Origin: an uncultured Gaiellales bacterium
GTDB taxonomy: Bacteria > Actinomycetota > Thermoleophilia > RBG-16-64-13
Reading direction: 5' to 3'
DNA length: 59,520 bases
Assembly (NCBI GenBank): GCA_964423425.1
Contig: CAYRES010000004.1
Coordinates: 74,736-134,255, forward strand
Within the stretch, counting starts at the first letter, position 1; every line of letters starts with the position of its first letter. A program made the position numbers and the translations under genes. Under the pieces are notes generated by a model, which was not told the origin of the DNA, did not search any database, and worked only from the letters and a program-made list of their open reading frames with translations. This document shows positions 1-25,386 of the stretch, piece by piece.

Positions 1-1137
1 GAGAAGATGGACGTCTTCGTCGAGGATCTCCTCAACTACGGGGAGTTCATGATGAGGGAGGCGATCTCCGAAATCCCGGATGGTGTGTACACGAGCGAGA
101 TAACCGGGAATGGGCAGTCGGTGCCTATCGTGTGCGAGTTGAGCATCAAGGGCGACGAGATGGTGGTGGATCTCACCAAGAGTGGTCCGCAAGTGCCTGC
201 CTACGTCAACAGCCCCATCGCCAACACCACGAGTTCGGTCTACATGTCCCTCATGACCTCGGTGGGCAAGCACATCGAGTACCGTTGCGGAGGCTGTTAC
301 CGTCCCATTCATCTGGAGACGAGACCGGGAACCATCACCCACGCCGAGTACCCGGCCGCCCACGGCAACTGCACCAACTTCGTCGCCAAGCAGATCATCG
401 AAGTCGTGTGGGACTCGCTCGCCCAAGCGGCTCCCGAGGTCACCCCGGCCGGTTGGGGTTCCATCAACTACTGGGTGTTCTCCGGACTGGATCCGCGGCG
501 GATGGAAGGCTACGGGAGTCCCGACTTCCTGGCCTGTGCAAGCGGAGCGGGTGCGATCTGGGGTGTCGACGGATGGTCCACGAATGGACCGACCATCTGT
601 AGCGGCACGCTCTACTACCCCGAGGTGGAAGTGGCCGAAGGCATCTATCCCATCATCTGGGACCGCTGGGAGTGGGCCACCGACTCAGGGGCGCCGGGCA
701 AGTGGAGAGGAGGCTTGGGCGTGCACAACGAATGGACCTGTGATTCCGATCCCCAGCCCATCCATCTTGCGTATGCCGCCGAGCCCTTCGACTACCGGGT
801 AGCTCCCGCGGTAGCGGGGGGTCTGCTGCCCAAGCCGAACTCGAAGACCCTCAAGTTTGCGGATGGAAGGCTCGAAAGCCAGGAGGAAGTCCGAGCCAGG
901 ATGCTCTATCAGCTTCGCACGGGGGACAAGGCCATCGACTACACGCAGGGCGGGGCCGGTGTCGGCAATCCGCTCGAGCGGCCGGCTGAACTCGTGTGGG
1001 AGGACGTCCGTGATGAACTCGTGTCCAGAGAGAGCGCACGGGACGATTACGGGGTGGTGATCGATCCGGAAACGGGGGAATTGGACATGGCAGCCACCGA
1101 GGGGCTCCGGGCAAGTAAAGCGGCCGAGAGCATGTAG
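1..1137 (+). CDS. Hydantoinase B/5-oxoprolinase family protein (5' truncated by window edge)
   Basis: ORF is open from the window start. It has C-terminal HyuB/OplB motifs (DSGAPGKWRGGLG, GGAGVGNPLERP..V..DV..ELVS...ARDDYGVVI) and clearly resembles the paralog at 19160-20929. Confidence 0.9.
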   Translation, partial: EKMDVFVEDLLNYGEFMMREAISEIPDGVYTSEITGNGQSVPIVCELSIKGDEMVVDLTKSGPQVPAYVNSPIANTTSSVYMSLMTSVGKHIEYRCGGCYRPIHLETRPGTITHAEYPAAHGNCTNFVAKQIIEVVWDSLAQAAPEVTPAGWGSINYWVFSGLDPRRMEGYGSPDFLACASGAGAIWGVDGWSTNGPTICSGTLYYPEVEVAEGIYPIIWDRWEWATDSGAPGKWRGGLGVHNEWTCDSDPQPIHLAYAAEPFDYRVAPAVAGGLLPKPNSKTLKFADGRLESQEEVRARMLYQLRTGDKAIDYTQGGAGVGNPLERPAELVWEDVRDELVSRESARDDYGVVIDPETGELDMAATEGLRASKAAESM

Positions 1138-1151
1138 ACAGTCCCGCTCCG

Positions 1152-1221
1152 GGCGTCGCCGCCGTGGTCGGCGGCGACGCCGCCACGGCTCCGGCCCGCT
1201 ACTCGGCAGTGGGCCGGAGCC
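1152..1221 (+). other. Two tandem GC-rich stem-loops in an intra-operon spacer
   Basis: GGCGTCGCCGCCG-tggt-CGGCGGCGACGCC (13-bp perfect stem, 1152-1181) and GGCTCCGGCCCGCT-N7-AGTGGGCCGGAGCC (1187-1221, one G-U pair). No U-tract follows. Confidence 0.6.
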
Positions 1222-1266
1222 CCCCCAAGCCGGCCGAGCGGACGCCGAGAGAGAGGAGCACACGGC

Positions 1267-2868
1267 ATGATCATCGGTGAGGCGTTTGCCCGTATTGTCG
1301 CCATCCACGGTGACAAGACGGCCCTGAAGGACATGTACGGCAAGTACTTTCCCGTAGGCTACAGCTTCACATACGAGGAACTCGACGTAGCAACGAATCG
1401 TCTCGCCAATCACTTCCTGGGAATGGGGCTTCGGCGCGGTGATAGGGTTTCTGTACAGACGGGCACCGGCACCGGCCATGTGCTTGCCCTTCTGGCTTTG
1501 GCCAAGGCGGGAATGGCGATAGCCCCTATAGATCGCACCTACACCGCCGAGGAAATCGTCTATCAGGCGACCGATGCCGGGTCCCGGGCCTTCATTGTTG
1601 ATGCCGACATCTATCGGGAACTGGTCGCGCCTTTGGTTGACAGGATGCCCGAGGTGAAGCACTTCATTGTCATCGGTGAGGAGATCTCGGGCACGGCACG
1701 TTTCGAGCAGCTCATTGCGGAGGGACGAAGTTCCACCCCCGAAGTCGTGGTCGAAGCGAAAGACCTGCTTACGCTCATATACACCAGCGGCACCACCGGC
1801 AGGGCGAAAGGTGTGCCGCTCACGCATCGGAACTGGTGGGCGAGCGCCTGCGCGTGGACCACGGAGATCGGCATCAGTCCACACTGGAATTGGCTGCTGG
1901 TGATGCCGGTTCACACCTCGGGCGGAACAGGGTTGAGTCTGGTTGCCTTACTGAGGGGTTGCACACTTATCATGAGCGATCCTGTGCCGGCGAAGATACT
2001 GGAGCTCATCGAAATGGAGAAGGTGAGCTTCACTCAGTTCAGCCCCACCCTTCTGGCCAATGTGATCCATCATGAGAACGCGGCAGTCACGGATTTCTCG
2101 AGTATCGAGCGCTGGTTCACCTCCGCTGCACCCATCTCGGCCGCCTTGCTGGCCGAGGGTGCATCGTTCTTGGGGGAAACGTTCTCGCAGCTCTACGGCA
2201 CCACCGAGACAGCACTGCTCGGCACGGTTCTCCGCCCGGAGGATGTGTCCGTCTCCGGCCCCACGGCCGATCGTCTCACGTCCGTGGGCCGGGCCTGCTG
2301 GGGCTACCGGACACTCGTTGTGGACGAAGAGGGCAACGAGGTTGGCCCGGGCGGCAGCGGTGAGCTGGCCATCGGCGGCGATGCGGTGGGCTCGGAGTAC
2401 TGGAATCGGCCCGATGCGGATGACTATCGCGATGGTTGGTGGTTCTCAGGCGACATCGTGCGGGTTGATGACGAAGGGTTCCTCTATGTGATCGATCGCA
2501 AGAAAGACATGATCCTCTCCGGTGGCACCAACATCTATCCGCGTGAAGTGGAGGACGTGCTGTCTGCGCATCCCGCCATCCACATCGTGGCCGTGGTCGG
2601 CGTGCCTGACGAGAAGTGGGGAGAGGCGGTCAAAGCAGTGGTGGTGCTGAGAGAGGGGGAGAAGGCCACCAGCGAGGAGATCATGGAATGGTGCCGGGAC
2701 AAGATGGCCTCGTACAAGAAGCCCAAGTCGGTTGATGTAATCGATATATCCGAGATGCCCCTCATGGGCGGGGGGTACAAGGTACTGCGTCGAGAGCTGC
2801 GGGACCGCTATCGCCGCCGTTTCGAGGAAGAGAAGAGGGCCGAAGTGGCCAGTTGGGGGGCGGTGTAG
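1267..2868 (+). CDS. AMP-forming acyl-CoA synthetase/ligase (class I adenylate-forming)
   Basis: YTSGTTGRAKG P-loop, YGTTE, SGD..R, DRKKDMILSGG and C-terminal catalytic Lys region. SD GAGGAG upstream. Confidence 0.92.
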   Translation: MIIGEAFARIVAIHGDKTALKDMYGKYFPVGYSFTYEELDVATNRLANHFLGMGLRRGDRVSVQTGTGTGHVLALLALAKAGMAIAPIDRTYTAEEIVYQATDAGSRAFIVDADIYRELVAPLVDRMPEVKHFIVIGEEISGTARFEQLIAEGRSSTPEVVVEAKDLLTLIYTSGTTGRAKGVPLTHRNWWASACAWTTEIGISPHWNWLLVMPVHTSGGTGLSLVALLRGCTLIMSDPVPAKILELIEMEKVSFTQFSPTLLANVIHHENAAVTDFSSIERWFTSAAPISAALLAEGASFLGETFSQLYGTTETALLGTVLRPEDVSVSGPTADRLTSVGRACWGYRTLVVDEEGNEVGPGGSGELAIGGDAVGSEYWNRPDADDYRDGWWFSGDIVRVDDEGFLYVIDRKKDMILSGGTNIYPREVEDVLSAHPAIHIVAVVGVPDEKWGEAVKAVVVLREGEKATSEEIMEWCRDKMASYKKPKSVDVIDISEMPLMGGGYKVLRRELRDRYRRRFEEEKRAEVASWGAV

Positions 2869-4437
2869 ATGAACGTGTTCGGCACGATGGAAGAGGTGAA
2901 GGAGAAGATGCGCAAGGCCAACCAGGAAGCGGAGCTTCCCGGACCGACCAAGGCGTATGCGCGCATGAAGGAACAGGGGCGGCTCAACGCACGGGAGCGC
3001 ATTGACGTGCTCCTCGATCCGGGCACCTTCGTGGAGCTCGGACGTCTCGCAGAGAGCACCATTCACGAGTTCGGCATGGACAAGAAGCGGCTCCCGGGGG
3101 ACGGCATCATCATCGGCCACGGCAAGATCGATGGCCGCATGGTGTGTGTGTACTCACAGGATTCGGCGGTGCTCGGTGGTTCGGTGGGGGTCTTCCACGG
3201 GCGGATGATGTGCGAGATCACGGATCTGGCCACCAAGACCGGGGTACCCATCATCAATCTCATGGACTCACCGGGCGCTCGTATCCAAGAGGCCATCGGG
3301 GAAGTCCAGGGTCCACCCGACATCTTCTACCGCAATGTGCGCGCCTCGGGTGTGGTGCCTCAGCTCTCCTTGGTGTTCGGGAATGTGGCCGGCCTTGTGA
3401 TCTACTCGGCGGCACTCACCGACTTCATCTTCATGGTGGAGGAGCAGTCGCACGCGTTGATCACGGGCCCCGAGGTCATCCGTACGATTTCTGGCGAAGA
3501 GATCACGATGGAGGACCTCGCGGGCGCGCGCGTGCATGCTGAGAAGACGGGCATAGCCGACTATGTGGGCAAAGACGACGTCGATCTTCTGCTGGCCGCC
3601 CGTAGATTCATCTCCTTCCTCCCCGGCAACAACCTGGAAGGCCCGCCCAAGGTAGATACGGGCGATTCACCGACCCGCCGCATGGATGAAGTGGACGGTA
3701 TCGTTCCCGTCGATCCAGGCTTGGCCTTCGATGTCCACGACGTGATCGACCTCTTCGTGGACAGCGGCGACTTCTTCGAGATCGAGCCCGACTTCGCCTC
3801 TGAGCTTGTCACCGGTTTCGGCCGCCTGGCGGGGAGCACTGTGGGGATCCTCGCGAACAACCCACTTCATCTGGCCGGCAGCCTCACGGTCGACTCTTCC
3901 GACAAGTTCGCCCGCTTCATGCGCTTCTGCGATGCCTTCAACATCCCCTGCATTCTCTTCGTGGACGTCCCGGGTTACTTTCCCGGCATCGACCAGGAGC
4001 ACAGGGGCATCATCAACCACGGCGCAAAGGTGCTCTACGCGCTGTGTGAGGCCACGGTGCCGAAGATCTCGGTGGTGATCCGCAAGTGCTACGGCGGGGG
4101 CATGCTGGCCATGGGGGGCCACAAGGCGCTCCGCATCGATCAGGCTTTCGGTTGGCCCACGGCGGAGCTTGCCACCATGGGCGCCGACGCGGCGGTGAAC
4201 GTTCTGTATCGAGAAGAACTCAAGAATGCTGCCGATCCGGATGCCCGGCGTAGTGAGCTTCTCGAGGAGTACCGGGAAGAGCACGCCAACCCGGTGCGGG
4301 CGGCCAACAAGAGATTCTTGGACGACGTCATCGACCCGGGGGAGACGCGGCTACGGGTGATCGCGGCTCTCGAACTTCTCTCGCGCAAGAAGGACGATCC
4401 GCCGCCCCAGAAGAAGCACGGGAACATCCCCCTCTAG
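2869..4437 (+). CDS. Acyl-CoA carboxylase carboxyltransferase (beta) subunit, PccB/MmdA-like
   Basis: ARERI..LLDPGTFVE, GARIQE, RFMRFCDAFNIP..FVDVPG, EATVPKI and C-terminal KKHGNIPL. Confidence 0.92.
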   Translation: MNVFGTMEEVKEKMRKANQEAELPGPTKAYARMKEQGRLNARERIDVLLDPGTFVELGRLAESTIHEFGMDKKRLPGDGIIIGHGKIDGRMVCVYSQDSAVLGGSVGVFHGRMMCEITDLATKTGVPIINLMDSPGARIQEAIGEVQGPPDIFYRNVRASGVVPQLSLVFGNVAGLVIYSAALTDFIFMVEEQSHALITGPEVIRTISGEEITMEDLAGARVHAEKTGIADYVGKDDVDLLLAARRFISFLPGNNLEGPPKVDTGDSPTRRMDEVDGIVPVDPGLAFDVHDVIDLFVDSGDFFEIEPDFASELVTGFGRLAGSTVGILANNPLHLAGSLTVDSSDKFARFMRFCDAFNIPCILFVDVPGYFPGIDQEHRGIINHGAKVLYALCEATVPKISVVIRKCYGGGMLAMGGHKALRIDQAFGWPTAELATMGADAAVNVLYREELKNAADPDARRSELLEEYREEHANPVRAANKRFLDDVIDPGETRLRVIAALELLSRKKDDPPPQKKHGNIPL

Positions 4438-4470
4438 GGGCTGTGGGGAGCAAAGGAAAGGAGGGGGTTC

Positions 4471-5973
4471 ATGTTCGAGAAGATACTCATTGCGAACCGA
4501 GGGGAGATCGCGCTCAGGGTGATGCGGGCCTGCAAGGAGATGGGTATCGCCACTGTGGCGGTGTACTCCGAGGCCGACCGGACGGCGCGGCATGTCCGCT
4601 ACGCCGACGAGGCCTATCTCATAGGGGGAGCCGTTTCCTCCGATAGCTACCTCAGGCAGGATCGCATCCTCGAGGTAGCCTGGAAGAGTGGCGCGGAGGC
4701 CGTCCACCCCGGGTATGGGTTCCTGGCGGAGAATCCGGACTTCGCCGAGGCCTGCGAGAAGGCGGGACTTGTCTTCATCGGCCCGCCGAGTGGGGCGATG
4801 CGCCAACTGGGCTCGAAGACGGAGGCGCGGCGCATCATGGTCGAGGCGGGTGTGCCCGTGATACCCGGTATGCAGCGGGGCTGCGACACCACAGAGGAAG
4901 GCTTGCGTGAGGCGGAACGCATCGGCTATCCGGTGATGCTGAAAGCCGCAGCGGGTGGTGGAGGCAAGGGAATGCGGGTGGTAGAGTCCGCTGAGGAGTT
5001 CGCCTCCGCCTTCGAGAATGCACGAGGAGAGGCCGCATCTGCATTCGGCGACCCCACCGTCTACGTGGAGAAGAAACTTGTCGGGCCCCGGCACATCGAA
5101 TTCCAGATACTGGCCGACCAGCACGGCAACTGCGTACACCTGAACGAGAGGGAGTGCTCCATCCAGCGTCGCCACCAGAAGTTGGTGGAAGAATCACCAT
5201 CCGCCATCATGACGCCGGAGTTGCGGGCCCGTATGGGAGAGGTTGCGGTCAAGGCAGCGCTGGCTGCCGGCTATACCAACGCAGGCACGGTGGAGTTCCT
5301 GGTCGATGCCGAGCGCAACTTCTACTTCCTGGAAGTGAACGCCCGCCTGCAGGTGGAGCACCCGGTTACGGAGATGGTCACCGGCATTGACTTGGTCAAA
5401 GAGCAGTTTCGGATCTCTGCGGGTGAGAAGCTGGCCATCGGCCAAGATGACATTCGACTCTTCGGCTCGGCGATAGAGTGCCGCATCTGCGCCGAGGATC
5501 CGTACGAAGACTTCTTCCCCAGTTCGGGCGTGGTGGAGCTTCTCATCGAGCCGGCCGGTCCCGGAGTACGGTTGGAGAGCGGCCTCAGGGAGGGCCAGGA
5601 AGTCTCCCTCTATTACGATCCCTTGGTGGCCAAGCTCATTTGTTGGGCGGGCACGCGGGGAGAGGCCATCACCCGCATGCGAAGGGCACTCGGTGAGTAT
5701 GAAGTGTACGGCATCAAGACCACCATTCCCTTCCACAAGCGGGTGATGGAGGACGTGAACTTCCGCCTCGGCGATTTCGACACCACCTACGTCGACCAGA
5801 ATCGGCTTGACGACGTACCGAAGCGGGCCGGGAGCGACGAGATCGCGGCGGCGGTGGCGACGCTGTTTGCTGATGCGGAGAAGTCCAAACCCCAGGTCGG
5901 GTCAGGCCGAGACTCCGATCTTCAAGGTGATCCCTGGAATGCGTACGCCATTGCGGCTCTCATGCGGAGGTGA
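4471..5973 (+). CDS. Biotin carboxylase subunit (AccC/PccA-type)
   Basis: KILIANRGEIA, HPGYGFLAEN, GGGGKGMR, ERECSIQRRHQK and FLEVNARLQVEHPVTE. SD AGGAGG upstream. Confidence 0.95.
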   Translation: MFEKILIANRGEIALRVMRACKEMGIATVAVYSEADRTARHVRYADEAYLIGGAVSSDSYLRQDRILEVAWKSGAEAVHPGYGFLAENPDFAEACEKAGLVFIGPPSGAMRQLGSKTEARRIMVEAGVPVIPGMQRGCDTTEEGLREAERIGYPVMLKAAAGGGGKGMRVVESAEEFASAFENARGEAASAFGDPTVYVEKKLVGPRHIEFQILADQHGNCVHLNERECSIQRRHQKLVEESPSAIMTPELRARMGEVAVKAALAAGYTNAGTVEFLVDAERNFYFLEVNARLQVEHPVTEMVTGIDLVKEQFRISAGEKLAIGQDDIRLFGSAIECRICAEDPYEDFFPSSGVVELLIEPAGPGVRLESGLREGQEVSLYYDPLVAKLICWAGTRGEAITRMRRALGEYEVYGIKTTIPFHKRVMEDVNFRLGDFDTTYVDQNRLDDVPKRAGSDEIAAAVATLFADAEKSKPQVGSGRDSDLQGDPWNAYAIAALMRR

Positions 5974-5978
5974 GAGAG

Positions 5979-6506
5979 ATGGCACAAAGAGAGCGCGTCT
6001 ACACCGTGACGGTGGACGGCCGGGAATTTGCGGTCACGGTGAACGGACACAAAGAAGCCGCCCGTGTATCGCTCAATGGGGCGGATTATGTGAATGCAGA
6101 TCTGTTCGCACACGGACAGGTGAATCAGTTCTCGCTTCTCATGGGGAACAGTTCGTATGAGGGGCTCGTGGAGCCCATCGATGCCGGCTACAGAGTGTGG
6201 GTGGACGGAGAGCCCTTCGAAGTGGCAGTCCTTGAGCAGTGGATGAAGGAGTTCGCCGGAGGCAGATTGGCGGGCGCCAGTGGTGGATTGCCGACCAGCA
6301 TGAAGAGTCCCATGCCGGGGATGGTGGTGGGTGTGGCAGTCAATCCCGGTGACGAAGTCAAGAAGGGTCAGCCGCTCATCACTCTGGAAGCCATGAAAAT
6401 GCGGAACGACCTCAAGTCGCCGCGGGAAGGGGTTGTCAAGGCAGTCGTCGCTGCTGTCGGCAAGACAGTGGCGAAAGGTGACGTTCTTGTGGAGTTCGAA
6501 GCCTGA
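5979..6506 (+). CDS. Biotin carboxyl carrier protein
   Basis: SPMPG and the EAMKM biotinylation motif in the C-terminal domain. Start is ATG 5979 or the overlapping GTG 5970. Confidence 0.92.
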   Translation: MAQRERVYTVTVDGREFAVTVNGHKEAARVSLNGADYVNADLFAHGQVNQFSLLMGNSSYEGLVEPIDAGYRVWVDGEPFEVAVLEQWMKEFAGGRLAGASGGLPTSMKSPMPGMVVGVAVNPGDEVKKGQPLITLEAMKMRNDLKSPREGVVKAVVAAVGKTVAKGDVLVEFEA

Positions 6507-6758
6507 TGATTGCCCGGCCGTGCTTGTGTCGGAGGGGACTTGGGATCGCTGATGAGAGAGGGTAGGCAGTGCGGACTTGTGAGGCCTGGTTTAAACACGA
6601 CCTGAACTCACTGCAGCCTCCGGACGTTTCTCCATAGGCAGCTTGCGGCCTCTTCTCTCGGGGCTGCTGTACTGACCGTTCTTCCTACGAGTACTCGTAA
6701 GACCGTGCTGGGTCTCCACTCTCGACCAATGCGCCCTCAGTCAGGGGGTGGGCACATA

Positions 6759-8135: not shown

Positions 8136-8163
8136 ACAACTCCACGTGCGGGACCAAGCTGAG

Positions 8164-8208
8164 CCGGGGCGCCGCCGCGCCGGCTTGTAGAGCGCGGCGG
8201 CGCCCCGG
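8164..8208. terminator. Probable bidirectional terminator hairpin between convergent operons
   Basis: 17-bp perfect inverted repeat CCGGGGCGCCGCCGCGC-N11-GCGCGGCGGCGCCCCGG between the stops at 8135 (+) and 8212 (-). Confidence 0.7.
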
Positions 8209-8211
8209 GGA

Positions 8212-10503: not shown

Positions 10504-10504
10504 G

Positions 10505-10984: not shown

Positions 10985-10989
10985 CCCCC

Positions 10990-12109: not shown

Positions 12110-12125
12110 TCACCCGAACGGGTGA
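12110..12125. promoter_or_regulatory. Palindromic operator TCACCC-N4-GGGTGA upstream of the Mo-hydroxylase operon
   Basis: TCACCCGAACGGGTGA, the same motif as at 15386-15401 and 16728-16743. Confidence 0.65.
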
Positions 12126-15250: not shown

Positions 15251-15381
15251 AGCTCTCCTCCGTCGACCGCCTCGATGGCGGCCCGAGCCGTATGAGCGTA
15301 GTTGAATCAGCGTAACCAGCCCGCGAAAGGAGCGCAAGGCTACGATCCCTCCTTTGGGCATCAGGGGACCAATGTGGTAGA

Positions 15382-15405
15382 GATATCACCCATATGGGTG
15401 ATATC
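15382..15405. promoter_or_regulatory. 24-bp perfect palindrome (operator) in the divergent moxR/luxR promoter region
   Basis: GATATCACCCAT|ATGGGTGATATC is exactly self-complementary, with core TCACCC-ATAT-GGGTGA. Confidence 0.75.
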
Positions 15406-16614: not shown

Positions 16615-16727
16615 GATATCCCGTTCCAGCGCCGGTCCGTGCTGGGGAACCCGCTGTCGGGCCGATCTTGCTCGTGGGGTTGCGCCGAATCTCCTCTTGG
16701 CCTCCCCCGGCCGTGCTCTCACCGCTA

Positions 16728-16772
16728 TCACCCAAACGAGTAATCGACGAGGTCTACGCCCCTGCCTAGAAT
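16728..16772 (+). promoter_or_regulatory. Activator-dependent promoter: degenerate operator plus -10 TAGAAT
   Basis: TCACCCAAACGAGTAA (16728-16743) lies 23 nt before TAGAAT (16767-16772). There is no consensus -35. Confidence 0.55.
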
Positions 16773-16964
16773 CGGCCTAGGTAGGGACGAAGAGCTTGGT
16801 CGAGGGGAACCAGCCTCGATCCCACACGAGGGGGGAACGAGATGTCCGCTTTGTTTGACTCCTCCTGACCGCTCCAAACCGTAGCCTGCGGGGGCGGCCA
16901 CGTGGTGCCGTATCGGGCTCCATCAGCGACAAGTGAACCGCACTATGAACTCATGGGGGAACAC

Positions 16965-19109
16965 ATGGCTTACAAGATTGGCATCGACGTAGGAGGAACG
17001 TTCACCGACTTCCTGCTGATGGCGGACGACGGGAGCTTCGAGGTTTACAAAGCTTCTTCTACTCCCCAGGATCCATCCATCGCCGTGCTCAACGGACTGA
17101 CTCAGATGGCGAACGCCAAGGGAGTGAGTCTCGAGGAGTTTCTTCCTCAGGTCTCGTCGATCGCGCACGGCACCACCATTACCACCAACGCCGTACTTAC
17201 AAGCAACGTAGCCAAGACCGGATTGATGACTACGGAAGGGCACCGTGACTGGCTCCAGACCCGCCGCGGCCTCAAGCCCAGCTGCTACGACGCCAAGGAA
17301 ACACCACCCGAGCCCATCGTACCCCGCAAGTTGCGCCGCCCCGTGAAGGAAAGGACGGCTTTCGACGGTCGGGAACTGGTCCCGCTCAGCGTGGACGACG
17401 TACTTGAGGCCGCCCGTGCCTTCAAGAAAGAGGGCGTGCAGGCCGTGGCCGTGTGCTTCCTGAACTCCTTCGCCGATCCCGAGCATGAGAAGAAGGCGAA
17501 GGACATCCTGGAACGGGAACTCCCGGGCGTGTACGTCTCCGCCTCCAGCGACGTGTTACCGCAGGTGCGCGTGTACGAGCGCGGCTCCACCACGGTTTTC
17601 AACGCCGCCGTGGGCCCCATCCTTCGCAGCTACATCAACAATCTGCTGGACAAGCTCGAAACCAGCGGCTTTCAGGGCGTGCTCCTCATCATGCAGTCCA
17701 ACGGCGGCATGATGTCGCCGCGAGTAGCCATGGACTTCGCTGTCAACACGCTACTCTCCGGCCCGGCCGGCGGCGCCACCTCCGGCGTGTTCTTCGGCGA
17801 TATCCACGAGTGCAAGAACGTCATCACCATGGACATGGGCGGCACCTCCTTCGATGTCTGCCTCATCCGCGAACGCGAACCGGAGATCTCCTCCGAGTTG
17901 GACGTAGCCATGTTCCGCATGGCCGCTCCATCCATCGGCATCTACACAGTGGGCGCCGGCGGTGGCTCCATCGCCAATGTGGACCACGACGGCATGTTCC
18001 GGGTGGGCCCCCGGAGCGCCGGTGCTTTCCCAGGCCCGGCCTGTTACGGCACCGGTGGGACCGAGCCGGCCGTGACCGACGCCGACCTGCTACTGGGTTA
18101 CCTGGATCCGGACTACTTCCTGGGCGGGACCATGAAGATCGATCAGGAACTCTCCCGGCAGGCGCTAAAGACCCACGTGATGGACAAACTCAATCTCAGC
18201 GAGGAAGAGGCCGCCTGGGGTGTGTACAAGATCGTGAACAGCAACATGGCCCAGGCCGTGCGTGTCACCTCCATCAACAAGGGCTACGACCCACGCTCGG
18301 CCTTCCTGGTGACGGCCGGTGGCGCGGGCCCGGTGCATGCCTGCGCCATCGCCGATGACCTTGAGGCCCCCATGATCCTGGTGCCCAAGATCTCGTCGGT
18401 CTTCTGCGCCACCGGCATGTTGATCTCCGATATCAAGCACGACTTCGTGCGTGTGCTGCACATGATCTTGGATCCCAAGAACATGGATGTACCCGGGTTC
18501 AACGCCCGCATGGAAGAGATGAAGCAGGAAGCCCTGGATGTTCTGAAGCGCGAGGGGATCGCCTCGGACCGCATCCAGCTCAACTACTGGGCGGACATCC
18601 GTTACGAGGGTCAGTTCAATGAGATCGCCACCCCGGTGCCCATGAAGAACGGGAGCCGCTTCGCCTTCGGCATGCTGTCCGACCTGAACGACGCCTTCAA
18701 CAAGCGTCACGACACCCTCTTCGGCTACTCGCTGCCCGGCTTTACGCAGGAATTGATGTCACTGCGGCTCTCGGCCGTGGGCACGGTGGACAAGCCCGAC
18801 TTCCGGGAGACCGGGTTTGTGGGCGAGGACGCCTCCCAGTGCATCAAGACCTATCGCGACATCTACTGGGACGGCGCGTGGCTCGATGCCGCCGTCTACG
18901 ACGGTCCCAAGATGGGACGCGGCCACAAGCTGGTCGGTCCGGCCATCATCGAGGAGCCGACCACGACCATCGTGGTGCCACCGCACTGGCAGCTCTTCTG
19001 CGACCGTTACAGCAACTACGTCCTGAACCACGTCGGCATGTCCTTGGAGGAGAGCTTCCGCCTCGTGCGGTGGGACACCTGCCGTGAAGAACAGGCCGCA
19101 AAGGTTTGA
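16965..19109 (+). CDS. Hydantoinase A/5-oxoprolinase family ATP-binding subunit
   Basis: IGIDVGGTFTD, HGTTITTNA, LLSGPAGG, DMGGTSFD, VGAGGGSIA, GPRSAGAFPGPACYG and GGAGPVHA. Confidence 0.93.
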   Translation: MAYKIGIDVGGTFTDFLLMADDGSFEVYKASSTPQDPSIAVLNGLTQMANAKGVSLEEFLPQVSSIAHGTTITTNAVLTSNVAKTGLMTTEGHRDWLQTRRGLKPSCYDAKETPPEPIVPRKLRRPVKERTAFDGRELVPLSVDDVLEAARAFKKEGVQAVAVCFLNSFADPEHEKKAKDILERELPGVYVSASSDVLPQVRVYERGSTTVFNAAVGPILRSYINNLLDKLETSGFQGVLLIMQSNGGMMSPRVAMDFAVNTLLSGPAGGATSGVFFGDIHECKNVITMDMGGTSFDVCLIREREPEISSELDVAMFRMAAPSIGIYTVGAGGGSIANVDHDGMFRVGPRSAGAFPGPACYGTGGTEPAVTDADLLLGYLDPDYFLGGTMKIDQELSRQALKTHVMDKLNLSEEEAAWGVYKIVNSNMAQAVRVTSINKGYDPRSAFLVTAGGAGPVHACAIADDLEAPMILVPKISSVFCATGMLISDIKHDFVRVLHMILDPKNMDVPGFNARMEEMKQEALDVLKREGIASDRIQLNYWADIRYEGQFNEIATPVPMKNGSRFAFGMLSDLNDAFNKRHDTLFGYSLPGFTQELMSLRLSAVGTVDKPDFRETGFVGEDASQCIKTYRDIYWDGAWLDAAVYDGPKMGRGHKLVGPAIIEEPTTTIVVPPHWQLFCDRYSNYVLNHVGMSLEESFRLVRWDTCREEQAAKV

Positions 19110-19159
19110 GTACCGGAATGCGAGACCTCACGAATGAGACCTCAAAAGGGGGCGGCGCA

Positions 19160-20929
19160 ATGACCCAAGATTGCGAAGTCAAGCAGGTAGATCCGATCCT
19201 GGCTGCCGTCTTGGACAGCCGGTTCAACGCCATTGTCGATCTCGTGGCCGGTGCCATGATGCGGACCTCCATGTCTCCCATCTTCGCCGAAGCTCGCGAC
19301 ATCGCCGCGGCCATCTTCGACAAGGACCTGCGGCTCATCGCTCAGCGCGACTGGCTGCCGGTCCTGGCAAGCAACTGCAGCGTGGCCATCAGAGAGATAG
19401 CCGAGTCGTGGGAGGGGGAGATCGAGGAAGGCGATGTCTTCATCCACAATGACGCCTTCGGCCGTAACAGCCACCAGCCGGACGTCAACGTGGCCAAGCC
19501 CATCTTCTACAATGGCCAGATCGCCTTCTGGGCCATGGCCAAGGGCCATCACGCCGACATCGGTGGCAAGGGGATCTGCGGCTATAACCCGGAGGCCAGC
19601 AGCTGCTGGGACGATGGGCTGGTGATCAAGCCGGCCAAGCTCTACATCGCCGGCAAGAAGAACCGCAGCCTGTGGGACTTCATCAAGGCCAATACCAAGC
19701 TGCCGGTGCTGGGTGAGGCAGACCTCAACTGCCAGATCGGCGCATGTGTCACTGGTGAACGTGCCCTGGTGGCACTGTTGGACCAGTACGGCGTGGACGC
19801 GGTGCAGGATTCGCTGGACATGATCATGGACGCTACTGAGCATGGGCTGCGGGCCAAGATCAGCGAGCTCAAGCCGGGCGTCTACTACGGCGAGAAGGCT
19901 ATCGATGACGACGTGGTGAACCGCGGCATGCCGGTGACAGTGCGGGCGAAGGTGACCGTGGGCGACGGCGAGATCGAGATTGACCTCTCCGACAGCGACC
20001 CGCAGGTGCCTTCTTACATGAACAGCACCTGGGGCAACACCTACTCCGTGTCTACCATGGCCGTGCTGTACTTCATGCCCGGAGACACCAAGCGAAACGC
20101 GGGCGCTCTGCGGCCCATCAAGCTCATCACCAAGAAGGGCACCTTCGTCGATCCCGAGTTCCCGGCTGCGTGCAGCATGTGCACGTGCTCCATGACGGAA
20201 ACCATCTTTGAGGCCATCACCCTGGCTCTGGCCGAGACCAAGCCGGAATGGGCGACGGCGGCGCACGGCAAGATGAGCCTGCACATCTCCTGCGGCCTCA
20301 ACCCCAACAACCAGCGGCCCTTCGCCACCATCGATTTCGCCACCTGTGCTGAAGGATCCGGCGGGACCATGGGCCACGACGGCTGGGCCATGGGCGGCCC
20401 CACTCATTGCATGGGCCAACTGCGCAGCCCAGACCCTGAGATCATGGAGATCGTGACCCCGGTGACCGTGTGGCAGCTGGAGCTGACCGGCGGCCGTGAA
20501 GGCGCCGGCAAGTACCGCGGCGGTGTGGGAGCCAACTACAGGGTGGAGTACACGGCCGACGCGGAGTGCGTGGAATGCGGGCAGGGTCACGCCGACTACG
20601 CGGTGCCCGCCGGCCTCTTCGGCGGCGGCAATCCCATCCCCAGCGCGCCGCGTGTGTTACGCAAGGCCAATGGGGAGCGCGAGCGTATCCCGGTCAACGT
20701 CTTCTGGAGCGTCAAGGCGGGAGACATCTACGAGCAGGACATGCAGGGCGGCGCCGGCTGGGGTAACCCCTTCGAGCGCGATCCGGAGAAGGTGCTCAAG
20801 GACTACGACGATGAGTTCCTGTCCGCCGCTGATGCCAAGGAGATCTACGGCGTGGTGATCAATGAGGCGGCCGGTGCCATCGACTGGGCTGCCACCGAAG
20901 CCGCCCGCGCGGCCGGGGCGCCCAAATAG
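19160..20929 (+). CDS. Hydantoinase B/5-oxoprolinase family metal-binding subunit
   Basis: RTSMSPIFAEARD, GDVFIHND...HQPD, HHADIGG, GAGKYRGG and GGAGWGNPFERDPE. Confidence 0.93.
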   Translation: MTQDCEVKQVDPILAAVLDSRFNAIVDLVAGAMMRTSMSPIFAEARDIAAAIFDKDLRLIAQRDWLPVLASNCSVAIREIAESWEGEIEEGDVFIHNDAFGRNSHQPDVNVAKPIFYNGQIAFWAMAKGHHADIGGKGICGYNPEASSCWDDGLVIKPAKLYIAGKKNRSLWDFIKANTKLPVLGEADLNCQIGACVTGERALVALLDQYGVDAVQDSLDMIMDATEHGLRAKISELKPGVYYGEKAIDDDVVNRGMPVTVRAKVTVGDGEIEIDLSDSDPQVPSYMNSTWGNTYSVSTMAVLYFMPGDTKRNAGALRPIKLITKKGTFVDPEFPAACSMCTCSMTETIFEAITLALAETKPEWATAAHGKMSLHISCGLNPNNQRPFATIDFATCAEGSGGTMGHDGWAMGGPTHCMGQLRSPDPEIMEIVTPVTVWQLELTGGREGAGKYRGGVGANYRVEYTADAECVECGQGHADYAVPAGLFGGGNPIPSAPRVLRKANGERERIPVNVFWSVKAGDIYEQDMQGGAGWGNPFERDPEKVLKDYDDEFLSAADAKEIYGVVINEAAGAIDWAATEAARAAGAPK

Positions 20930-20991
20930 CCACACACAGCATGGGGGCCGGGTATCCGGCCCGGCCTCCCCTCACAAGGACGGAGCGTTTG

Positions 20992-21744
20992 ATGAAGATC
21001 TGGTGCCAGCTACCGATCAGCATGCCCGAGAGCCACCCGGCGTACGAGCCCTACTATGCTCTCCTGCGTGCCGATTATGCCACCGTAAAACGCCCGGGCA
21101 CCGAGGTCACTGTCAAGGACGTGCCGACCGGCTTGTCCAGCCCGGACGAGATCACGTACGTGGGCAACCGTTTCCGGAACGATCGGGAAATCCTCACCTC
21201 CATGCTGCAGGCCGAAGCGGAGGGCTACGATGCCGTCGCCGGGGCCTGCTTCTTCGACGGCGCCATCCGTGCTGCTCAGCAGATGATGGACATCCCGGTG
21301 GTGGGCCCGGCTCAGGCTTCCATGCAACTGGCCATGCTGCTCGGCACACGCTTCGCCACCATCACCTCCGATCCGCGCTGGATCCCGGAGATGGAAGCAC
21401 ACATCAGCGAGGTGGGGATGCGCGAGCACGCGATAGGGCCGAAGCTCATGCGCGCCATCACTCTGCCATCGGACATCTTCTTGGGATGCCTGGGCGGGGA
21501 CTACCAGCCCGCCGTGGACAATTTCACGGGGATTGCTGAGGGCTGCATCGAGGACGGCGCGGATGTCCTCATCGCCGGCTGCGGCCTCCTGTCCCCAATG
21601 CTCACGGTTGCGGGGCTGCACGAGATCGGCGGCGTCCCGGTCATTGATCCCATGCTCGCATCACTGAAGTACGCAGAGATGCTTGTGGACTACAGACAAA
21701 GCGGATTCCCGGTCAAGTCCACGGCCGGCTCGCTACTGGCCTAA
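20992..21744 (+). CDS. Asp/Glu/hydantoin racemase family protein
   Basis: AEAEGYDAVAGACFFD and GADVLIAGCG (two catalytic Cys), DIPVVG and GVPVIDP. Confidence 0.85.
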   Translation: MKIWCQLPISMPESHPAYEPYYALLRADYATVKRPGTEVTVKDVPTGLSSPDEITYVGNRFRNDREILTSMLQAEAEGYDAVAGACFFDGAIRAAQQMMDIPVVGPAQASMQLAMLLGTRFATITSDPRWIPEMEAHISEVGMREHAIGPKLMRAITLPSDIFLGCLGGDYQPAVDNFTGIAEGCIEDGADVLIAGCGLLSPMLTVAGLHEIGGVPVIDPMLASLKYAEMLVDYRQSGFPVKSTAGSLLA

Positions 21745-21771
21745 CAATCCACGAAGGAGGTGGAGGACCTC

Positions 21772-23421
21772 ATGGCAGACACAGCACATACTCCGGCTTG
21801 GAAGACCAAAGAGGAGCAGGTGTTCGAGACTGGGGCCGGTCTCGACATCAAGGAACTCTACACGCCGGAAGACATCGTGGGGTTAGATTATGACCGGGAT
21901 CTGGGTGCCCCGGGCGAGTATCCGTTCACCCGGGGTCCGTACCCTGGCATGTATCGCGAACGTATCTGGACCCGCAGGTTTCAGGTGGGCTTCGGGACAC
22001 CCCAAGAAACGAGCGAGCGGATTGGCTACCTCGCAGAGACCGGTGCCAACGGCTTCGTCATCACAATCGACCTGCCCACCTCCTACGGTTTCGATTCCGA
22101 CGACCCCATTGCTCGGGGCGAAGTTGGGGTCACCGGTGTGGCCATCAGCACCCTGGAGGACATGGAGACTCTGTACTCCAACACATCCCCGGACAGCGTG
22201 TCCTACGCTCTCTCTATTCGCCCGCCTGTCTCTGCCGTCACCCTAGCCATGCTCTCCTGTGTGGCCGAGAAACGGGGTATACCCCTGGATCGGGTGGTGG
22301 GAACTCAACAGAACGACCCCTTCTACCAGATGAGCGGCGGGCCGTTGCAGACACATGTCCAGTTCTTCCCGCTCGAGGGCATCCTGCGCCTGTGTGTCGA
22401 CAACATCGAGCACATATCCACGAAGATGCCGCGCCTAAATTGGATGGTGACCAACGGTTACAACCTGCGGGAGACGGGAGTGAACGCTGTGCAGGACGGA
22501 GCGTTCTCTCTGTCGCACGCCTTCGACATCTTCCGGATGTGCGTCGATCGAGGCCTGGACGTCAATGTGTTCGCGCGCCGTGCTTCCTTCTTCCTCTCCT
22601 GCTCCATCGATTTCTTCGAGGAGATCGCCAAGTACCGTGCCATGCGCCGACTGTATGCCAAGACCATGCAGGAGCGCTTCGCTGCCACCAACCCCGAGTG
22701 TTGGCGGATGCGCTTCTCGGTGCAGTCCGCCGGGAACACTCTGACCACGCAACAGCCACAGGTCAACATCATCCGGGCGGCCATGGAGTGCTTGGCTGCC
22801 GTCTTTGGTGGAGCCCAGTCTGTGCACCTTTCTTCCTACGATGAAGGCCTGGGTCTCCCCACCGAGGAATCTTCGCGCATCAATCTGCGTACCCAACAGG
22901 TCATCGCCTACGAGACCGGAGTCACCAAGACCGTAGACCCTCTGGGAGGGAGCTACTATGTCGAGGATCTGACCAATCGCTTGGAGTCCGCTATCGCCGA
23001 CAAGATTGCCGAAGTAGAGGAACATGGCGGCCTGGCGAATTGCGTACGCACCGGCTGGTTGGAGCGGGAGATCAACGAGGCCCGCTACAAGAACCAGCGC
23101 GATATCGACAGCAACCGGCGTCCGCTCATCGGTGTCAACCGCTACCGTATCCCTCCTGAGGACGAGATCCCCATCAAGATTCACAAGATCAAGGCCTCCG
23201 AGTGGGGTGAGCGCCGGGCCGACTACCTGCGCCGCTACCGTGCGGAGCGGGATCAGACCGCCTGGGCAGATGCTATGGCGCGAATCGACCGAGCCTGGAA
23301 GGAAGGGGCCAACATGGTGCCGGTGCTCATGGATGCACTCAAGAATCGGGTGACCATGGGCGAATGCCACGAGGCAATGCGCCAGGCACAGGGCTTCTCG
23401 TTCAGGAAGGGAGGTAGGTAA
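21772..23421 (+). CDS. Adenosylcobalamin-dependent acyl-CoA mutase, large (substrate-binding) subunit, atypical specificity
   Basis: PGEYPFTRGPYPGMY, DLPT..GFDSD, GEVGVTGVAI, GT.QND, FFEEIAKYRAMRR, YDEGLGLPTE and VDPLGGSYYVE. Confidence 0.93.
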   Translation: MADTAHTPAWKTKEEQVFETGAGLDIKELYTPEDIVGLDYDRDLGAPGEYPFTRGPYPGMYRERIWTRRFQVGFGTPQETSERIGYLAETGANGFVITIDLPTSYGFDSDDPIARGEVGVTGVAISTLEDMETLYSNTSPDSVSYALSIRPPVSAVTLAMLSCVAEKRGIPLDRVVGTQQNDPFYQMSGGPLQTHVQFFPLEGILRLCVDNIEHISTKMPRLNWMVTNGYNLRETGVNAVQDGAFSLSHAFDIFRMCVDRGLDVNVFARRASFFLSCSIDFFEEIAKYRAMRRLYAKTMQERFAATNPECWRMRFSVQSAGNTLTTQQPQVNIIRAAMECLAAVFGGAQSVHLSSYDEGLGLPTEESSRINLRTQQVIAYETGVTKTVDPLGGSYYVEDLTNRLESAIADKIAEVEEHGGLANCVRTGWLEREINEARYKNQRDIDSNRRPLIGVNRYRIPPEDEIPIKIHKIKASEWGERRADYLRRYRAERDQTAWADAMARIDRAWKEGANMVPVLMDALKNRVTMGECHEAMRQAQGFSFRKGGR

Positions 23422-23423
23422 CC

Positions 23424-23813
23424 ATGGGCACACGCAAGCGAGTGCTCTTGGCCAAGATGGGTCTTGACTGCCACGACACGGGCATAGTCACCGTGGCGCA
23501 GATGATGCGAGAGAACGGCTACGAGGTCATCTACATGGGGCTTCACAACTATGCCGACGCGGTGGTGAATACGGCCATTGCCGAGGATGTCGACTTGATC
23601 GGGGTGAGCTTTCTCTCGGGTCAACATGAGACTCAGACGCGGGAACTTCTGGATGCCATGAGGCAGGCGGAACTGAATGTGCCGGTCATGTGCGGCGGCA
23701 TCATCCCGCCTGATGACGCGCAGGAGTTGAAGCGCATGGGAGTGGCGGACGTCATCGAGCCCGGCACATTGACTGAAGACCTCGTGAGCCGCATCGGCTC
23801 CATCCTGTCCTAG
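23424..23813 (+). CDS. Cobalamin-binding small subunit of acyl-CoA mutase
   Basis: AKMGLDCHDTG (DxHxxG), GVSFLSG and GGIIP. Starts 2 nt after the large subunit. Confidence 0.93.
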   Translation: MGTRKRVLLAKMGLDCHDTGIVTVAQMMRENGYEVIYMGLHNYADAVVNTAIAEDVDLIGVSFLSGQHETQTRELLDAMRQAELNVPVMCGGIIPPDDAQELKRMGVADVIEPGTLTEDLVSRIGSILS

Positions 23814-23838
23814 CGACCGTCACTGCGGAGCAGAGACC

Positions 23839-25386
23839 ATGGATTGGACTCTAGACGAGTATATCCGGCGCAACGGGGCCCGCTACCCGGACAAGCCGGG
23901 CTTCATCATGGACAAGACAACGCGTACATGGAGAGAGGTTGATCGCCGCGTAGACCAACTGGCCCAGGCCCTTCATCGCCTGGGACTGCAGCGCAACGAT
24001 CGTGTGGCCACGCTCATGCACAACTGCCTCGAGTACCCTGAGGCGTACTATGGCTGTGCACGAGCGGGCATGATCGTGGTGCCGTTCAGCTACCGGCTGA
24101 CCGTGCCGGAACTGCATGAGATTCTCACCACAGCCGAACCGGCTCTCATGATCGTAGGTGCTTCCGAAGCACACAAGGCTTTCGCGTTGCGGGAGTTGTT
24201 GCCATCCCTGCAGCATATCTGGGTCGTGGGAGACGACACTCAGCCGGTGGAGCAGAACTACGAGGCGCAACTGCAGGGCTCGCCTTCTACTCCCGCCTAT
24301 TCCCCAAACGGTCAGAACGACACCTTCAGCATCTTCTTCACCAGCGGTACTACTGGACTGCCGAAGGGGGCGATGGTCTCCCATCTCAACCTCGAAGCCA
24401 ACGGCTTCAACCAGTTCGTGGCTGACGGCAGCCGCCACGAGGATGTGAACCTGATCGGCACGCCCCTCTACCACATGGGCGCCGTGTTCATGTCCGTCAC
24501 CTACACTATGCTGGGATGCACCCAAGTGGTCATAGAGAAGTTCGAGCCGGAGCTCTGGCTCGAGGCTCTGGAGCAGAACAGGGCTACGGTCGCGCTGTTG
24601 ATTCCTACCATGATAAACACGGTGCTGAACTACCCGGAACTCTCCGACCACGATCTCTCCAGTCTTCGCCTCATCTTCTACGGAGGCGGCCCCATGCCTC
24701 CTGCTGTGCTGAGGCGCGCACTGGCTGCGATGCCCTGTGGCTTCACACAGGGATACGGGCTCACAGAAACACTCGAAGCCACCTTCCTCGTGGCATCAGA
24801 TCACGAGATCACCGACGGAGATGAGAAGAAACTCTTCCGCCTGGCGTCCGCCGGTCGCGAGGCAACCGGCGCCGATGTGCGCATTATCGACGACGACGGC
24901 AATTCTCTTGGAACCGGCGAGGTGGGGGAGATCCTCATTCGCAGTCGTTCAAACATCAGCGGCTATTGGCGCAATCCCGAGGAAACCGCGGCGACGGTCA
25001 AAGGGACCTGGTTCCACACGGGTGACGTGGGCTACCTCGACGAGGACCGTTACCTCTTTGTGGTCGATCGCAAGAAGGACATGGTGGTCAGCGGGGGCGT
25101 CAACATCTACACGAAGGAGATCGAGAGCGTGATCTACTCACACCCCGCGGTTCTTGAGGCTGCTGTCGTCGGTCTGCCCGACGATCATTGGGGTGAGGTG
25201 GTCACAGCCTGCGTCGTTCTTCGCAACGGACAGAGTGTGACCACAGAAGAAATCACGGAGTACTGCAGCAGTAGGCTGGCCGGTTACAAGAAGCCGCGTC
25301 GGGTGTTCTTCTTGGGGGAACTGCCCAAGAACCCCAGTGGAAAGATCCTTAAGCGGGACTTGAGAGAGGTGCTGGCCGTGCAGTAG
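23839..25386 (+). CDS. AMP-forming acyl-CoA synthetase/ligase
   Basis: FTSGTTGLPKG, GYGLTE, FHTGDVG, DRKKDMVVSGG and LPKNPSGKILK. Confidence 0.93.
   Translation: MDWTLDEYIRRNGARYPDKPGFIMDKTTRTWREVDRRVDQLAQALHRLGLQRNDRVATLMHNCLEYPEAYYGCARAGMIVVPFSYRLTVPELHEILTTAEPALMIVGASEAHKAFALRELLPSLQHIWVVGDDTQPVEQNYEAQLQGSPSTPAYSPNGQNDTFSIFFTSGTTGLPKGAMVSHLNLEANGFNQFVADGSRHEDVNLIGTPLYHMGAVFMSVTYTMLGCTQVVIEKFEPELWLEALEQNRATVALLIPTMINTVLNYPELSDHDLSSLRLIFYGGGPMPPAVLRRALAAMPCGFTQGYGLTETLEATFLVASDHEITDGDEKKLFRLASAGREATGADVRIIDDDGNSLGTGEVGEILIRSRSNISGYWRNPEETAATVKGTWFHTGDVGYLDEDRYLFVVDRKKDMVVSGGVNIYTKEIESVIYSHPAVLEAAVVGLPDDHWGEVVTACVVLRNGQSVTTEEITEYCSSRLAGYKKPRRVFFLGELPKNPSGKILKRDLREVLAVQ

Follow-up and report, generated by a model that had tools for sequence, protein, structure and literature searches.

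A candidate catabolic island for a cyclic amide or N-heterocycle in an uncultured Gaiellales bacterium, with enzyme families of anaerobic indoleacetate degradation and a B12-dependent acyl-CoA mutase of an uncharacterised clade

The described system closest to the locus reported here is the anaerobic indoleacetate (iaa) pathway of Aromatoleum aromaticum, which uses a CoA ligase, a molybdenum (Mo) enzyme of the xanthine dehydrogenase (XDH) family, a hydantoinase-like HyuAB enzyme and a split B12 acyl-CoA mutase (PMC8360864); IaaC and IaaE are tabulated with 707 and 564 amino acids (aa) in PMC8453981. The locus lies in a stretch of 59,520 nucleotides (the window; G000:C4:74736-134255, GenBank contig CAYRES010000004.1) in the genome of an uncultured Gaiellales bacterium (G000; 2.69 Mb, 22 contigs, 98.6% complete). 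It has the enzyme families and the logic of iaa in common, and adds a racemase, a second HyuAB with a ligase, a biotin carboxylase and a cyclic amidohydrolase. In our assessment, the probability is roughly 0.5 that it was acquired horizontally as an island for the catabolism of a cyclic amide or N-heterocycle, in which an iaa-like logic would be carried out by different enzymes in a host without recognisable oxygen respiration. N-heterocycles and lactams (indoles, quinolines, pyridines, pyrrolidones and hydantoins) are common in wastewater, yet how they are degraded anaerobically is poorly mapped; the source DNA was recovered in 19 runs with the label sludge metagenome, which probably stem from one campaign and include no RNA.

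Other described systems resemble parts of the island. The caprolactamase CapAB of Pseudomonas jessenii (6yra) is the best solved relative of both HyuAB pairs, in which its Zn-site positions are largely kept; however, CapAB heads an aminotransferase/beta-oxidation route (PMC8453981), whereas the island pairs lie beside CoA ligases and a mutase. The split large- and small-subunit build of this mutase and its lack of a carboxylate-binding Arg are found also in the 2-hydroxyisobutyryl-CoA mutase HcmAB (HCM; 4r3u), although the two differ at four diagnostic positions and the island enzyme has a 4-residue insertion. In the hydantoin utilisation genes of Pseudomonas sp. NS671, HyuA and HyuB are followed by a hydantoin racemase gene, and island hyuA2-hyuB2 are likewise followed by a gene of the hydantoin racemase family; in contrast to NS671, the island has no N-carbamoyl-amino-acid amidohydrolase, and its module is joined to a mutase and a CoA ligase. 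The ATP-dependent HyuA/HyuB of NS671 are among the family members tabulated in PMC8453981.

Domains were called with Pfam, specificity was tested against NCBIfam equivalog cut-offs, and structural kin were taken as the best-scoring solved (PDB) relatives. The comparison panels were 40 relatives, 400 further genomes of the phylum, and 151 genomes of the betaproteobacterial family to which G041 belongs. In addition, 19 kb beyond the window start were read (coordinates given as L003), together with 40 kb of the corresponding region in G002, a relative of the same family and another genus.

The cluster genes form one accessory island of about 32 kb inserted at a conserved site. Of 24 relatives searched, 14 carry panC and the hps-rraA fusion on a single contig. 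In 12 of these the gap between the two ranges from 45 bp to 3.3 kb, and in the remaining two it is 5.3 kb (G007) and 17.6 kb (G006), compared to 31,977 bp in G000. Island GC is 61.6% against 64.05% for the genome, and only 1.9% of the genome's 30-kb windows are equally low. The island consists of three units. In the first, the regulator gene reg1 is divergent from hyuA1-hyuB1-lig1-CT-BC-BCCP-(198 nt)-amidohydrolase (operon 1), where CT, BC and BCCP are carboxyltransferase, biotin carboxylase and biotin carboxyl carrier protein; the second, on the opposite strand, reads AAA-VWA-(316 nt)-MoM-MoS-MoL, and the third reg2-(287 nt)-hyuA2-hyuB2-rac-mutL-mutS-lig2 (operon 2). Operons 1 and 2 are partly paralogous (hyuA 44%, hyuB 33%, ligases 33% and regulators 35% identical). 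Families could be assigned in the NCBIfam scan, and no protein reaches its specific equivalog cut-off. All gene families listed in a previous sequence-only reading were recovered by Pfam where it had placed them; its list missed one HyuA and a second GAF-LuxR regulator, both left of the window, as well as the MoxR-type AAA+ and VWA genes. Reading to the left, which it had proposed, brought to light hyuA1, the N-terminus of hyuB1 and the divergent GAF-LuxR gene reg1.

In G002, hyuA1B1-lig1-CT-BC-BCCP, reg2-hyuA2B2-rac-mutLS-lig2, the Mo M-S-L genes and the amidohydrolase gene are found within 25 kb, with 54-91% identity, at the same genomic site as in G000, beside hps-rraA; the order differs from that in G000, and the two operons are convergent. 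Because of the single 32-kb insertion at a conserved site, the atypical GC and this recurrence, the grouping of the genes goes beyond chance. G002 is the one relative of 40 with a mutase ortholog (91% identical); all other matches are at most 45% identical, bar a fragment at a contig end in G009 (80% over residues 2-45), and no ortholog was found in the 400 further genomes of the phylum (E <= 1e-180). CT orthologs (80-81%) occur in three of the 40 relatives (G002, G019 and G009; the rest at most 52%), a Mo large-subunit ortholog in G002 and, in two pieces on separate contigs, in G009, and a lig2 ortholog in G002 only. The 17.6-kb gap of G006 (G006:C14:8915-26484) lies likewise between hps-rraA and panC, in a relative without a mutase ortholog; judged from it, the site may be an insertion hotspot.

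As an iaa reference, the G398:C11 locus, from the betaproteobacterial family of G041, was recognised from gene order and sizes rather than by name. Its order is thiolase, ligase, HyuA (708 aa), HyuB (570 aa), acyl-CoA dehydrogenase (ACAD), mutase small subunit, mutase large subunit, FAD subunit, FeS subunit, Mo large subunit and CoA-transferase. Another locus, in G420, had been chosen as reference by HyuA size and proved not to be iaa-like. Island proteins are 29-47% identical to those of G398:C11 (mutase large subunit 37%). G000 also has an iaa-type module of its own at the start of another contig (C7:1-9920; L196), comprising family III CoA-transferase, ACAD, electron-transfer flavoprotein (ETF) beta, ETF alpha, mutS, mutL, hyuA and hyuB (cut by the contig end), which is 42-69% identical to the G398 cluster. 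Neither an IaaF-type decarboxylating ACAD nor an IaaL-type family III CoA-transferase was found among the 20 island genes scanned, whereas both are present on C7. Because of the low identities and the separate C7 module, the island is, by sequence comparison, a different system of the iaa design and not the iaa cluster.

The most interesting part of the island is the clade to which its mutase belongs. With an MM_CoA_mutase barrel and a DxHxxG B12 domain, MutL and MutS belong to the B12-dependent acyl-CoA mutase superfamily, and among solved relatives MutL scores higher with HCM (409 bits) than with human methylmalonyl-CoA mutase (MCM; 342 bits). The classic active-site residues of methylmalonyl-CoA mutase are Tyr89, Arg207 and His244 (P. 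shermanii numbering), and Arg207 binds the substrate carboxylate. At these positions MutL carries Gln (in the motif WTRRFQVGF), Thr and Asn (in NGYNLRETG); the Thr follows the 4-residue insertion, in a loop without a conserved basic residue. In contrast, all three classic residues are kept in human MCM, in iaa-type mutases and in the C7 mutase. Since all three are replaced, MutL does not fit the residue pattern of methylmalonyl-CoA and other dicarboxylyl-CoA mutases, and a succinyl- or malonyl-type substrate is disfavoured. Isobutyryl-CoA and 2-hydroxyisobutyryl-CoA mutases have Phe or Ile at the Tyr89 position and Gln at the Arg207 position, keep His244 and, in HCM, have Asp117. HCM itself carries Ile, Gln and His at the three positions, and over the four diagnostic positions in the 4r3u alignment it reads Ile/Asp/Gln/His compared to Gln/Thr/Thr/Asn in the island clade. 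MutL does not fit this second pattern either, since the diagnostic residues differ and the tree places its clade away from the Phe/Gln/His group.

The clade comprises at least 120 protein clusters. The 120 best database matches are all 70-91% identical to MutL, and their sources include Aromatoleum sp., Georgfuchsia toluolica, Steroidobacteraceae, Gamma- and Deltaproteobacteria and Planctomycetota; both exact motifs are present in 118 of these closest proteins. In a quick maximum-likelihood tree of 45 sequences, which carries long-branch warnings, 15 clade members are monophyletic (SH-aLRT 100; stem of 2.6 changes per site) and separate from both the iaa-type and the Phe/Gln/His groups. Among species-representative genomes, one of the 80 loci listed is a clade member, the other 79 being only 40-46% identical, and three of the 151 genomes in the family of G041 carry a clade mutase. 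A generic mutase peptide pattern gave one partial clade member among the 80 metagenome-contig matches listed.

In five of six genomic contexts (G000, G002, G041/L004, G184 and G128, not G009), hyuA-hyuB lie directly upstream of the clade mutase, and in those five a ligase 61-85% identical to lig2 lies 3' of the small subunit. The three betaproteobacterial contexts (G041/L004, G184 and G128) have the order hyuA-hyuB-mutL-mutS-x-ligase, with 73-75% identity in the mutase, 64-66% in the small subunit and 61-65% in the ligase (85% in G002). However, their HyuB is only 31-35% identical to that of the island and nearer to iaa-type HyuB. They lack the racemase and the biotin carboxylase, and add ACADs, OYE-type reductases and a CMD-family protein, in one case also MMPL/DUF1302/DUF1329 uptake genes or a nearby Mo hydroxylase. 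The G184 cluster (L108, 1641-8290) ends in BNR/YCF48-like, MMPL, DUF1302 and DUF1329 genes, a set associated with hydrophobic substrate uptake. No described hyuAB-mutase-ligase system was found in the literature searched, and the island cluster has no MeaB-like G-protein gene. It is possible, if rather doubtful, that the Gln/Thr/Asn clade performs an undescribed B12-dependent carbon-skeleton rearrangement on an acyl-CoA in which the neighbouring group is not a carboxylate but a lactam, an amide or an amine; HyuAB, the cognate ligase and such a mutase would then make up the core of a widespread but unrecognised route by which N-heterocycles or cyclic amides are degraded anaerobically, and the sludge island would be one elaborated version of it.

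Both HyuAB pairs are, as predicted proteins, far more similar to ATP-dependent lactamases than to ketone carboxylases. HyuA2 scores 521 bits with caprolactamase (6yra_A) and 481 with N-methylhydantoinase, compared to 351 with acetophenone carboxylase and 315 with acetone carboxylase; for HyuB2 the scores are 297.9 bits with CapB and 89 and 71 with the carboxylases. The Zn ligands of CapB are Asp41, His99, Asp101 and His124 (PMC8453981). HyuB2 keeps all four Zn-site positions (Asp41, His99, Asp101/102 and His124), and HyuB1, with CapB as its best solved relative (349.5 bits), keeps three of four, with Gln at the position of His99. The caprolactamase equivalog scores are 704 (alpha) and 365 bits, both below the cut-off of 1000. 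For the racemase, both catalytic Cys align with those of 3qvj, although overall similarity is weak (49 bits) and the protein atlas gives a family name only. Its solved relatives (hydantoin and allantoin racemases and the epimerase OpaE) act at a C-H beside a ring amide carbonyl.

The Mo hydroxylase has the composition of the XDH family (large, small and FAD subunits, Mo cofactor, two [2Fe-2S] clusters, FAD and a catalytic Glu). Among solved structures, its large subunit scores best with 4-hydroxybenzoyl-CoA reductase alpha (359 bits). It retains the catalytic Glu in the GxxGE motif, which aligns with those of 4-hydroxybenzoyl-CoA reductase and CoxL. The large subunit scores 605 bits with the XdhA model, short of the cut-off of 780, and the FAD subunit matches the HcrB model weakly (89 bits). 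A candidate operator links this unit to operon 2. The palindrome core TCACCC-N4-GGGTGA occurs in exactly two copies in the 2.69-Mb genome, both intergenic within the cluster, compared to about 0.2 exact copies expected for 12 specified bases; one is the centre of the 24-bp palindrome between the AAA+ gene and reg2, the other is at 12110, upstream of the Mo operon. G002 retains a one-mismatch copy in the intergenic region between reg2 and the Mo operon, and a counterpart of the degenerate palindrome upstream of hyuA2. There is thus good sequence evidence that Reg2 would control itself, the Mo hydroxylase and operon 2, and in G000 also the AAA/VWA pair. The 10-mer CCCACTTAGG likewise has two genome copies, both in the cluster, one upstream of hyuA1 and one upstream of the Mo operon.

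Operon 1 has the constituents of a biotin-dependent acyl-CoA carboxylase of the propionyl-CoA carboxylase type (BC, BCCP and a PccB-type CT). The CT, the only PccB-type CT in G000, has PccB 1vrg as best solved relative (541.7 bits); its score to TIGR01117 is 648 bits, below the cut-off of 999. The set points to a predicted carboxylase rather than a sodium-pumping decarboxylase, because the PccB-type CT comes with an ATP-grasp biotin carboxylase. The housekeeping acetyl-CoA carboxylase is separate, with AccD and AccA genes on C9 and a second biotin carboxylase on C19. The metal ligands of cyclic amidohydrolases are HxH, a carbamylated Lys, two His and an Asp, and all of these positions are kept in the island amidohydrolase, which has L-hydantoinase 1gkr as best solved relative (204.8 bits) and falls below equivalog cut-offs (D-hydantoinase, 239 bits against 393).

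Table 1. Features of the island and its candidate operators (window positions, or L003 positions left of the window)
Feature	Position	Strand	Basis or remark
reg1, GAF-LuxR regulator	L003:14569-15669	minus	left of window; divergent from operon 1
hyuA1, 735 aa	L003:15864-18071		left of window
hyuB1, C-terminal part	1-1137	+	Pfam Hydantoinase_B; full 594-aa gene L003:18089-19873
lig1, AMP-forming acyl-CoA ligase	1267-2868	+	Pfam AMP-binding, AMP-binding_C; 33% identical to lig2
CT, PccB-type acyl-CoA carboxylase	2869-4437	+	Pfam Carboxyl_trans, 521.9 bits
BC, ATP-grasp subunit	4471-5973	+	Pfam CPSase_L_D2, Biotin_carb_N, Biotin_carb_C
BCCP	5970-6506	+	Pfam Biotin_lipoyl
Cyclic amidohydrolase, hydantoinase/dihydropyrimidinase type	6705-8135	+	Pfam Amidohydro_1
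MoL, Mo hydroxylase large (molybdopterin) subunit	8212-10590	minus	Pfam Ald_Xan_dh_C, MoCoBD_1, MoCoBD_2
MoS, Mo hydroxylase small [2Fe-2S] subunit	10505-10984	minus	Pfam Fer2_2, Fer2
MoM, Mo hydroxylase FAD subunit	10990-11877	minus	Pfam FAD_binding_5, CO_deh_flav_C
10-mer CCCACTTAGG	12071-12080		upstream of Mo operon; candidate operator
Palindrome TCACCCGAACGGGTGA	12110-12125		upstream of Mo operon; candidate operator
VWA-domain protein, CobT_C-like	12194-14125	minus	Pfam CobT_C, 27.6 bits
MoxR-type AAA+ ATPase, distantly CobS-like	14141-15361	minus	Pfam AAA_5; TIGR01650 62 bits against cut-off 558
24-bp perfect palindrome GATATCACCCATATGGGTGATATC	15382-15405		between AAA+ gene and reg2; candidate Reg2 operator
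reg2, GAF-LuxR regulator	15472-16614	+	Pfam GAF_2, GerE; 35% identical to reg1
Degenerate palindrome copy ATCACCCAAACGAGTAAT	16727-16744		upstream of hyuA2; two mismatches
hyuA2, ATP-binding subunit of ATP-dependent lactamase	16902-19109	+	Pfam Hydant_A_N, Hydantoinase_A, Hydant_A_C
hyuB2, hydrolytic subunit	19106-20929	+	Pfam Hydantoinase_B
rac, two-cysteine racemase/epimerase, hydantoin/allantoin racemase group	20941-21744	+	Pfam Asp_Glu_race
mutL, acyl-CoA mutase large subunit, uncharacterised clade	21760-23421	+	Pfam MM_CoA_mutase (PF01642), 554 bits
mutS, B12-binding small subunit	23424-23813	+	Pfam B12-binding (PF02310), 88 bits; DxHxxG present as DCHDTG
lig2, AMP-forming acyl-CoA ligase	23839-25386	+	Pfam; accompanies mutase

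Neither a heme-copper oxidase (COX1) nor a cytochrome bd oxidase was found in the 98.6% complete genome, and no member of the HGD-D family (class I benzoyl-CoA reductase type) was found in it. G000 has five AOR-family genes, one of them beside a hyuAB pair on C2, and holds five hyuA/hyuB pairs and seven XDH-type Mo large subunits in its 2.69 Mb. B12 is probably scavenged, because no CbiC was found in G000, although two B12 mutases are present. A third module (C6:40900-49725; L197) carries genes for a GAF-PAS histidine kinase, a LuxR response regulator, HyuA, HyuB, a protein of the Asp/Glu/hydantoin racemase family and a phenylacetate-CoA-ligase-like protein.

The pathway suggested by these comparisons would run as follows. 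The two GAF-LuxR regulators would sense the substrate or an intermediate, and the FAD/[2Fe-2S]/Mo hydroxylase would add water-derived oxygen beside a ring nitrogen to give a lactam. The two-Cys racemase would equilibrate the stereocentre adjoining the lactam carbonyl, after which HyuA2B2 would open the ring at the expense of ATP. The ligase Lig2 would form the CoA thioester, either at this stage or, as in iaa, at the very start, and the B12 mutase would shift the thioester carbon; because the mutase is without the carboxylate-holding Arg of methylmalonyl-CoA mutase, the group next to that carbon probably carries no charge (amide, amine, hydroxyl or carbon). Finally, operon 1 (HyuA1B1, Lig1, the carboxylase and the amidohydrolase) may open a second ring or amide bond and carboxylate the resulting acyl-CoA at C2, either as part of this pathway or with a related compound as substrate. 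We infer the substrate, the order of the steps and the coupling of the two operons. The sequence-only reading had described an oxygen-independent cluster distinct from iaa, and both points agree with the results above, namely the lack of a detected terminal oxidase and, for the second, the low identities and separate C7 module. Its expectation that the genes co-occur in other genomes was borne out in another genus by G002, where the parts lie together, and the conserved candidate operator ties the Mo hydroxylase to the HyuAB2-racemase-mutase-ligase operon. In contrast, its proposal that the mutase makes a substituted malonyl-CoA is not supported, given the replacement of the carboxylate-binding Arg, the Tyr and the His, all of which iaa-type mutases keep. 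It had also suggested that the biotin-dependent set could take the place of the decarboxylating acyl-CoA dehydrogenase step; the ATP-grasp subunit speaks for carboxylation and not decarboxylation, and the ties of operon 1 to the other units are weak.

The main rival to a single pathway is that the island houses two independent ones: an iaa-like route under Reg2 (Mo hydroxylase, HyuAB2, racemase, mutase and Lig2), and, under Reg1, a separate lactam or hydantoin route (HyuAB1, Lig1, carboxylase and amidohydrolase) whose last step would be to carboxylate a short acyl-CoA. We regard this as possible at well under even odds. Both units lie in a single insertion and are still adjacent in G002 despite rearrangement, CT orthologs are limited to genomes with other island parts except in G019, and the 10-mer is common to the hyuA1 and Mo-operon upstream regions. 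On the other hand, the two regulators are just 35% identical, the palindrome is confined to reg2, hyuA2 and the Mo operon, and the betaproteobacterial clusters hold the hyuAB-mutLS-lig2 core without a biotin carboxylase. Several observations also count against the main reading. G019 (87% complete) has a CT ortholog (80%), and no lig2 or Mo large-subunit ortholog was found in it with these queries; in G009, genes for an MFS transporter and a USP protein, instead of hyuAB, lie ahead of the mutase fragment. Operon 1 has its own regulator and no palindrome, and its sole sequence link to the Mo operon, the 10-mer, is not conserved in G002 and is therefore only a weak one. The AAA+/VWA pair was not found in the 40 kb of G002 that were read. 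Transporter, dehydrogenase, thiolase and aminotransferase genes are all missing from the G000 island genes, so the pathway is incomplete as read, and with Asn in place of His244 the mutase might follow an altered chemistry or have little activity.

Less probable explanations concern the identity of the enzymes. It is unlikely that the HyuAB pairs carboxylate ketones at the expense of ATP, as acetone and acetophenone carboxylases do, and that the ligases activate the beta-keto acid products. Such carboxylases and lactamases are homologous (PMC8453981), and each pair has a ligase 3' of it, but the scores are far lower than with lactamases (HyuA2 351/315 against 521 bits, HyuB2 89/71 against 298). 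Furthermore, every open reading frame (ORF) of at least 100 aa in both operons matched another Pfam family and no small extra subunit gene was seen, although no dedicated gamma-subunit search was made, and a racemase and a cyclic amidohydrolase suit cyclic amides better. It is very unlikely that the genes are chance neighbours, that is, a purine xanthine dehydrogenase, hydantoinases, a propionyl-CoA carboxylase and the methylmalonyl-CoA mutase of a propionate pathway. The nearest named models are indeed XdhA, PccB/MmdA and acyl-CoA mutase. However, all proteins score below their specific equivalog cut-offs, the defining residues of methylmalonyl-CoA mutase are lacking in MutL, and the mutase ortholog is missing from 39 of the 40 relatives (a fragment only in G009) and was not detected in the 400 further genomes of the phylum; the genes also form one accessory insertion with a shared operator, recurrent in G002. 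Least credible of all, and already contradicted, is that the island is this organism's iaa cluster. Its enzyme families are those described for iaa in PMC8360864, yet its identities to the G398 cluster are just 29-47%, against 42-69% for the better iaa-type module on C7; the decarboxylating ACAD and family III CoA-transferase are absent from the island, and its mutase differs from iaa-type mutases in active-site residues and in clade.

The island would be an example of the iaa design as a modular one, reused with other enzymes. For the mutase, the clade spans Proteobacteria, Planctomycetota and an actinobacterium-like lineage, with all three classic active-site residues replaced. To our knowledge, only a handful of acyl-CoA mutase specificities have been established; a new one, if true, would matter for B12 enzymology and for the engineering of carbon-skeleton rearrangements.

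Several features of the surroundings were also recorded. Genes 3' of lig2 encode an ArsM-like methyltransferase and a carbamate kinase, followed by housekeeping genes, and TsaB, TsaD and TsaE genes are present, which are bacterial markers; the names of TsaD homologues point tentatively to Actinomycetota. The place of the ArsM-like and carbamate kinase genes is occupied in G002, between island and hps-rraA, by a gene (L095:5267-9682) for a 1471-aa protein with BcrAD_BadFG ATPase and DUF2229 ('CoA enzyme activase') domains. The carbamate kinase ORF of G000 (window 26200-27600) has about 140 extra N-terminal residues when read from its first GTG and overlaps the ArsM-like gene on the other strand; its true start is probably later. 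ORFs of 736 aa (window 35771-37981, minus strand) and 453 aa (L003:11211-12572, minus strand) have no Pfam match. GC-rich inverted repeats, resembling terminator or attenuator hairpins by eye, are present at 8136-8211 (between the convergent amidohydrolase and MoL genes), 1138-1266 (between hyuB1 and lig1) and 25387-25522 (after lig2).

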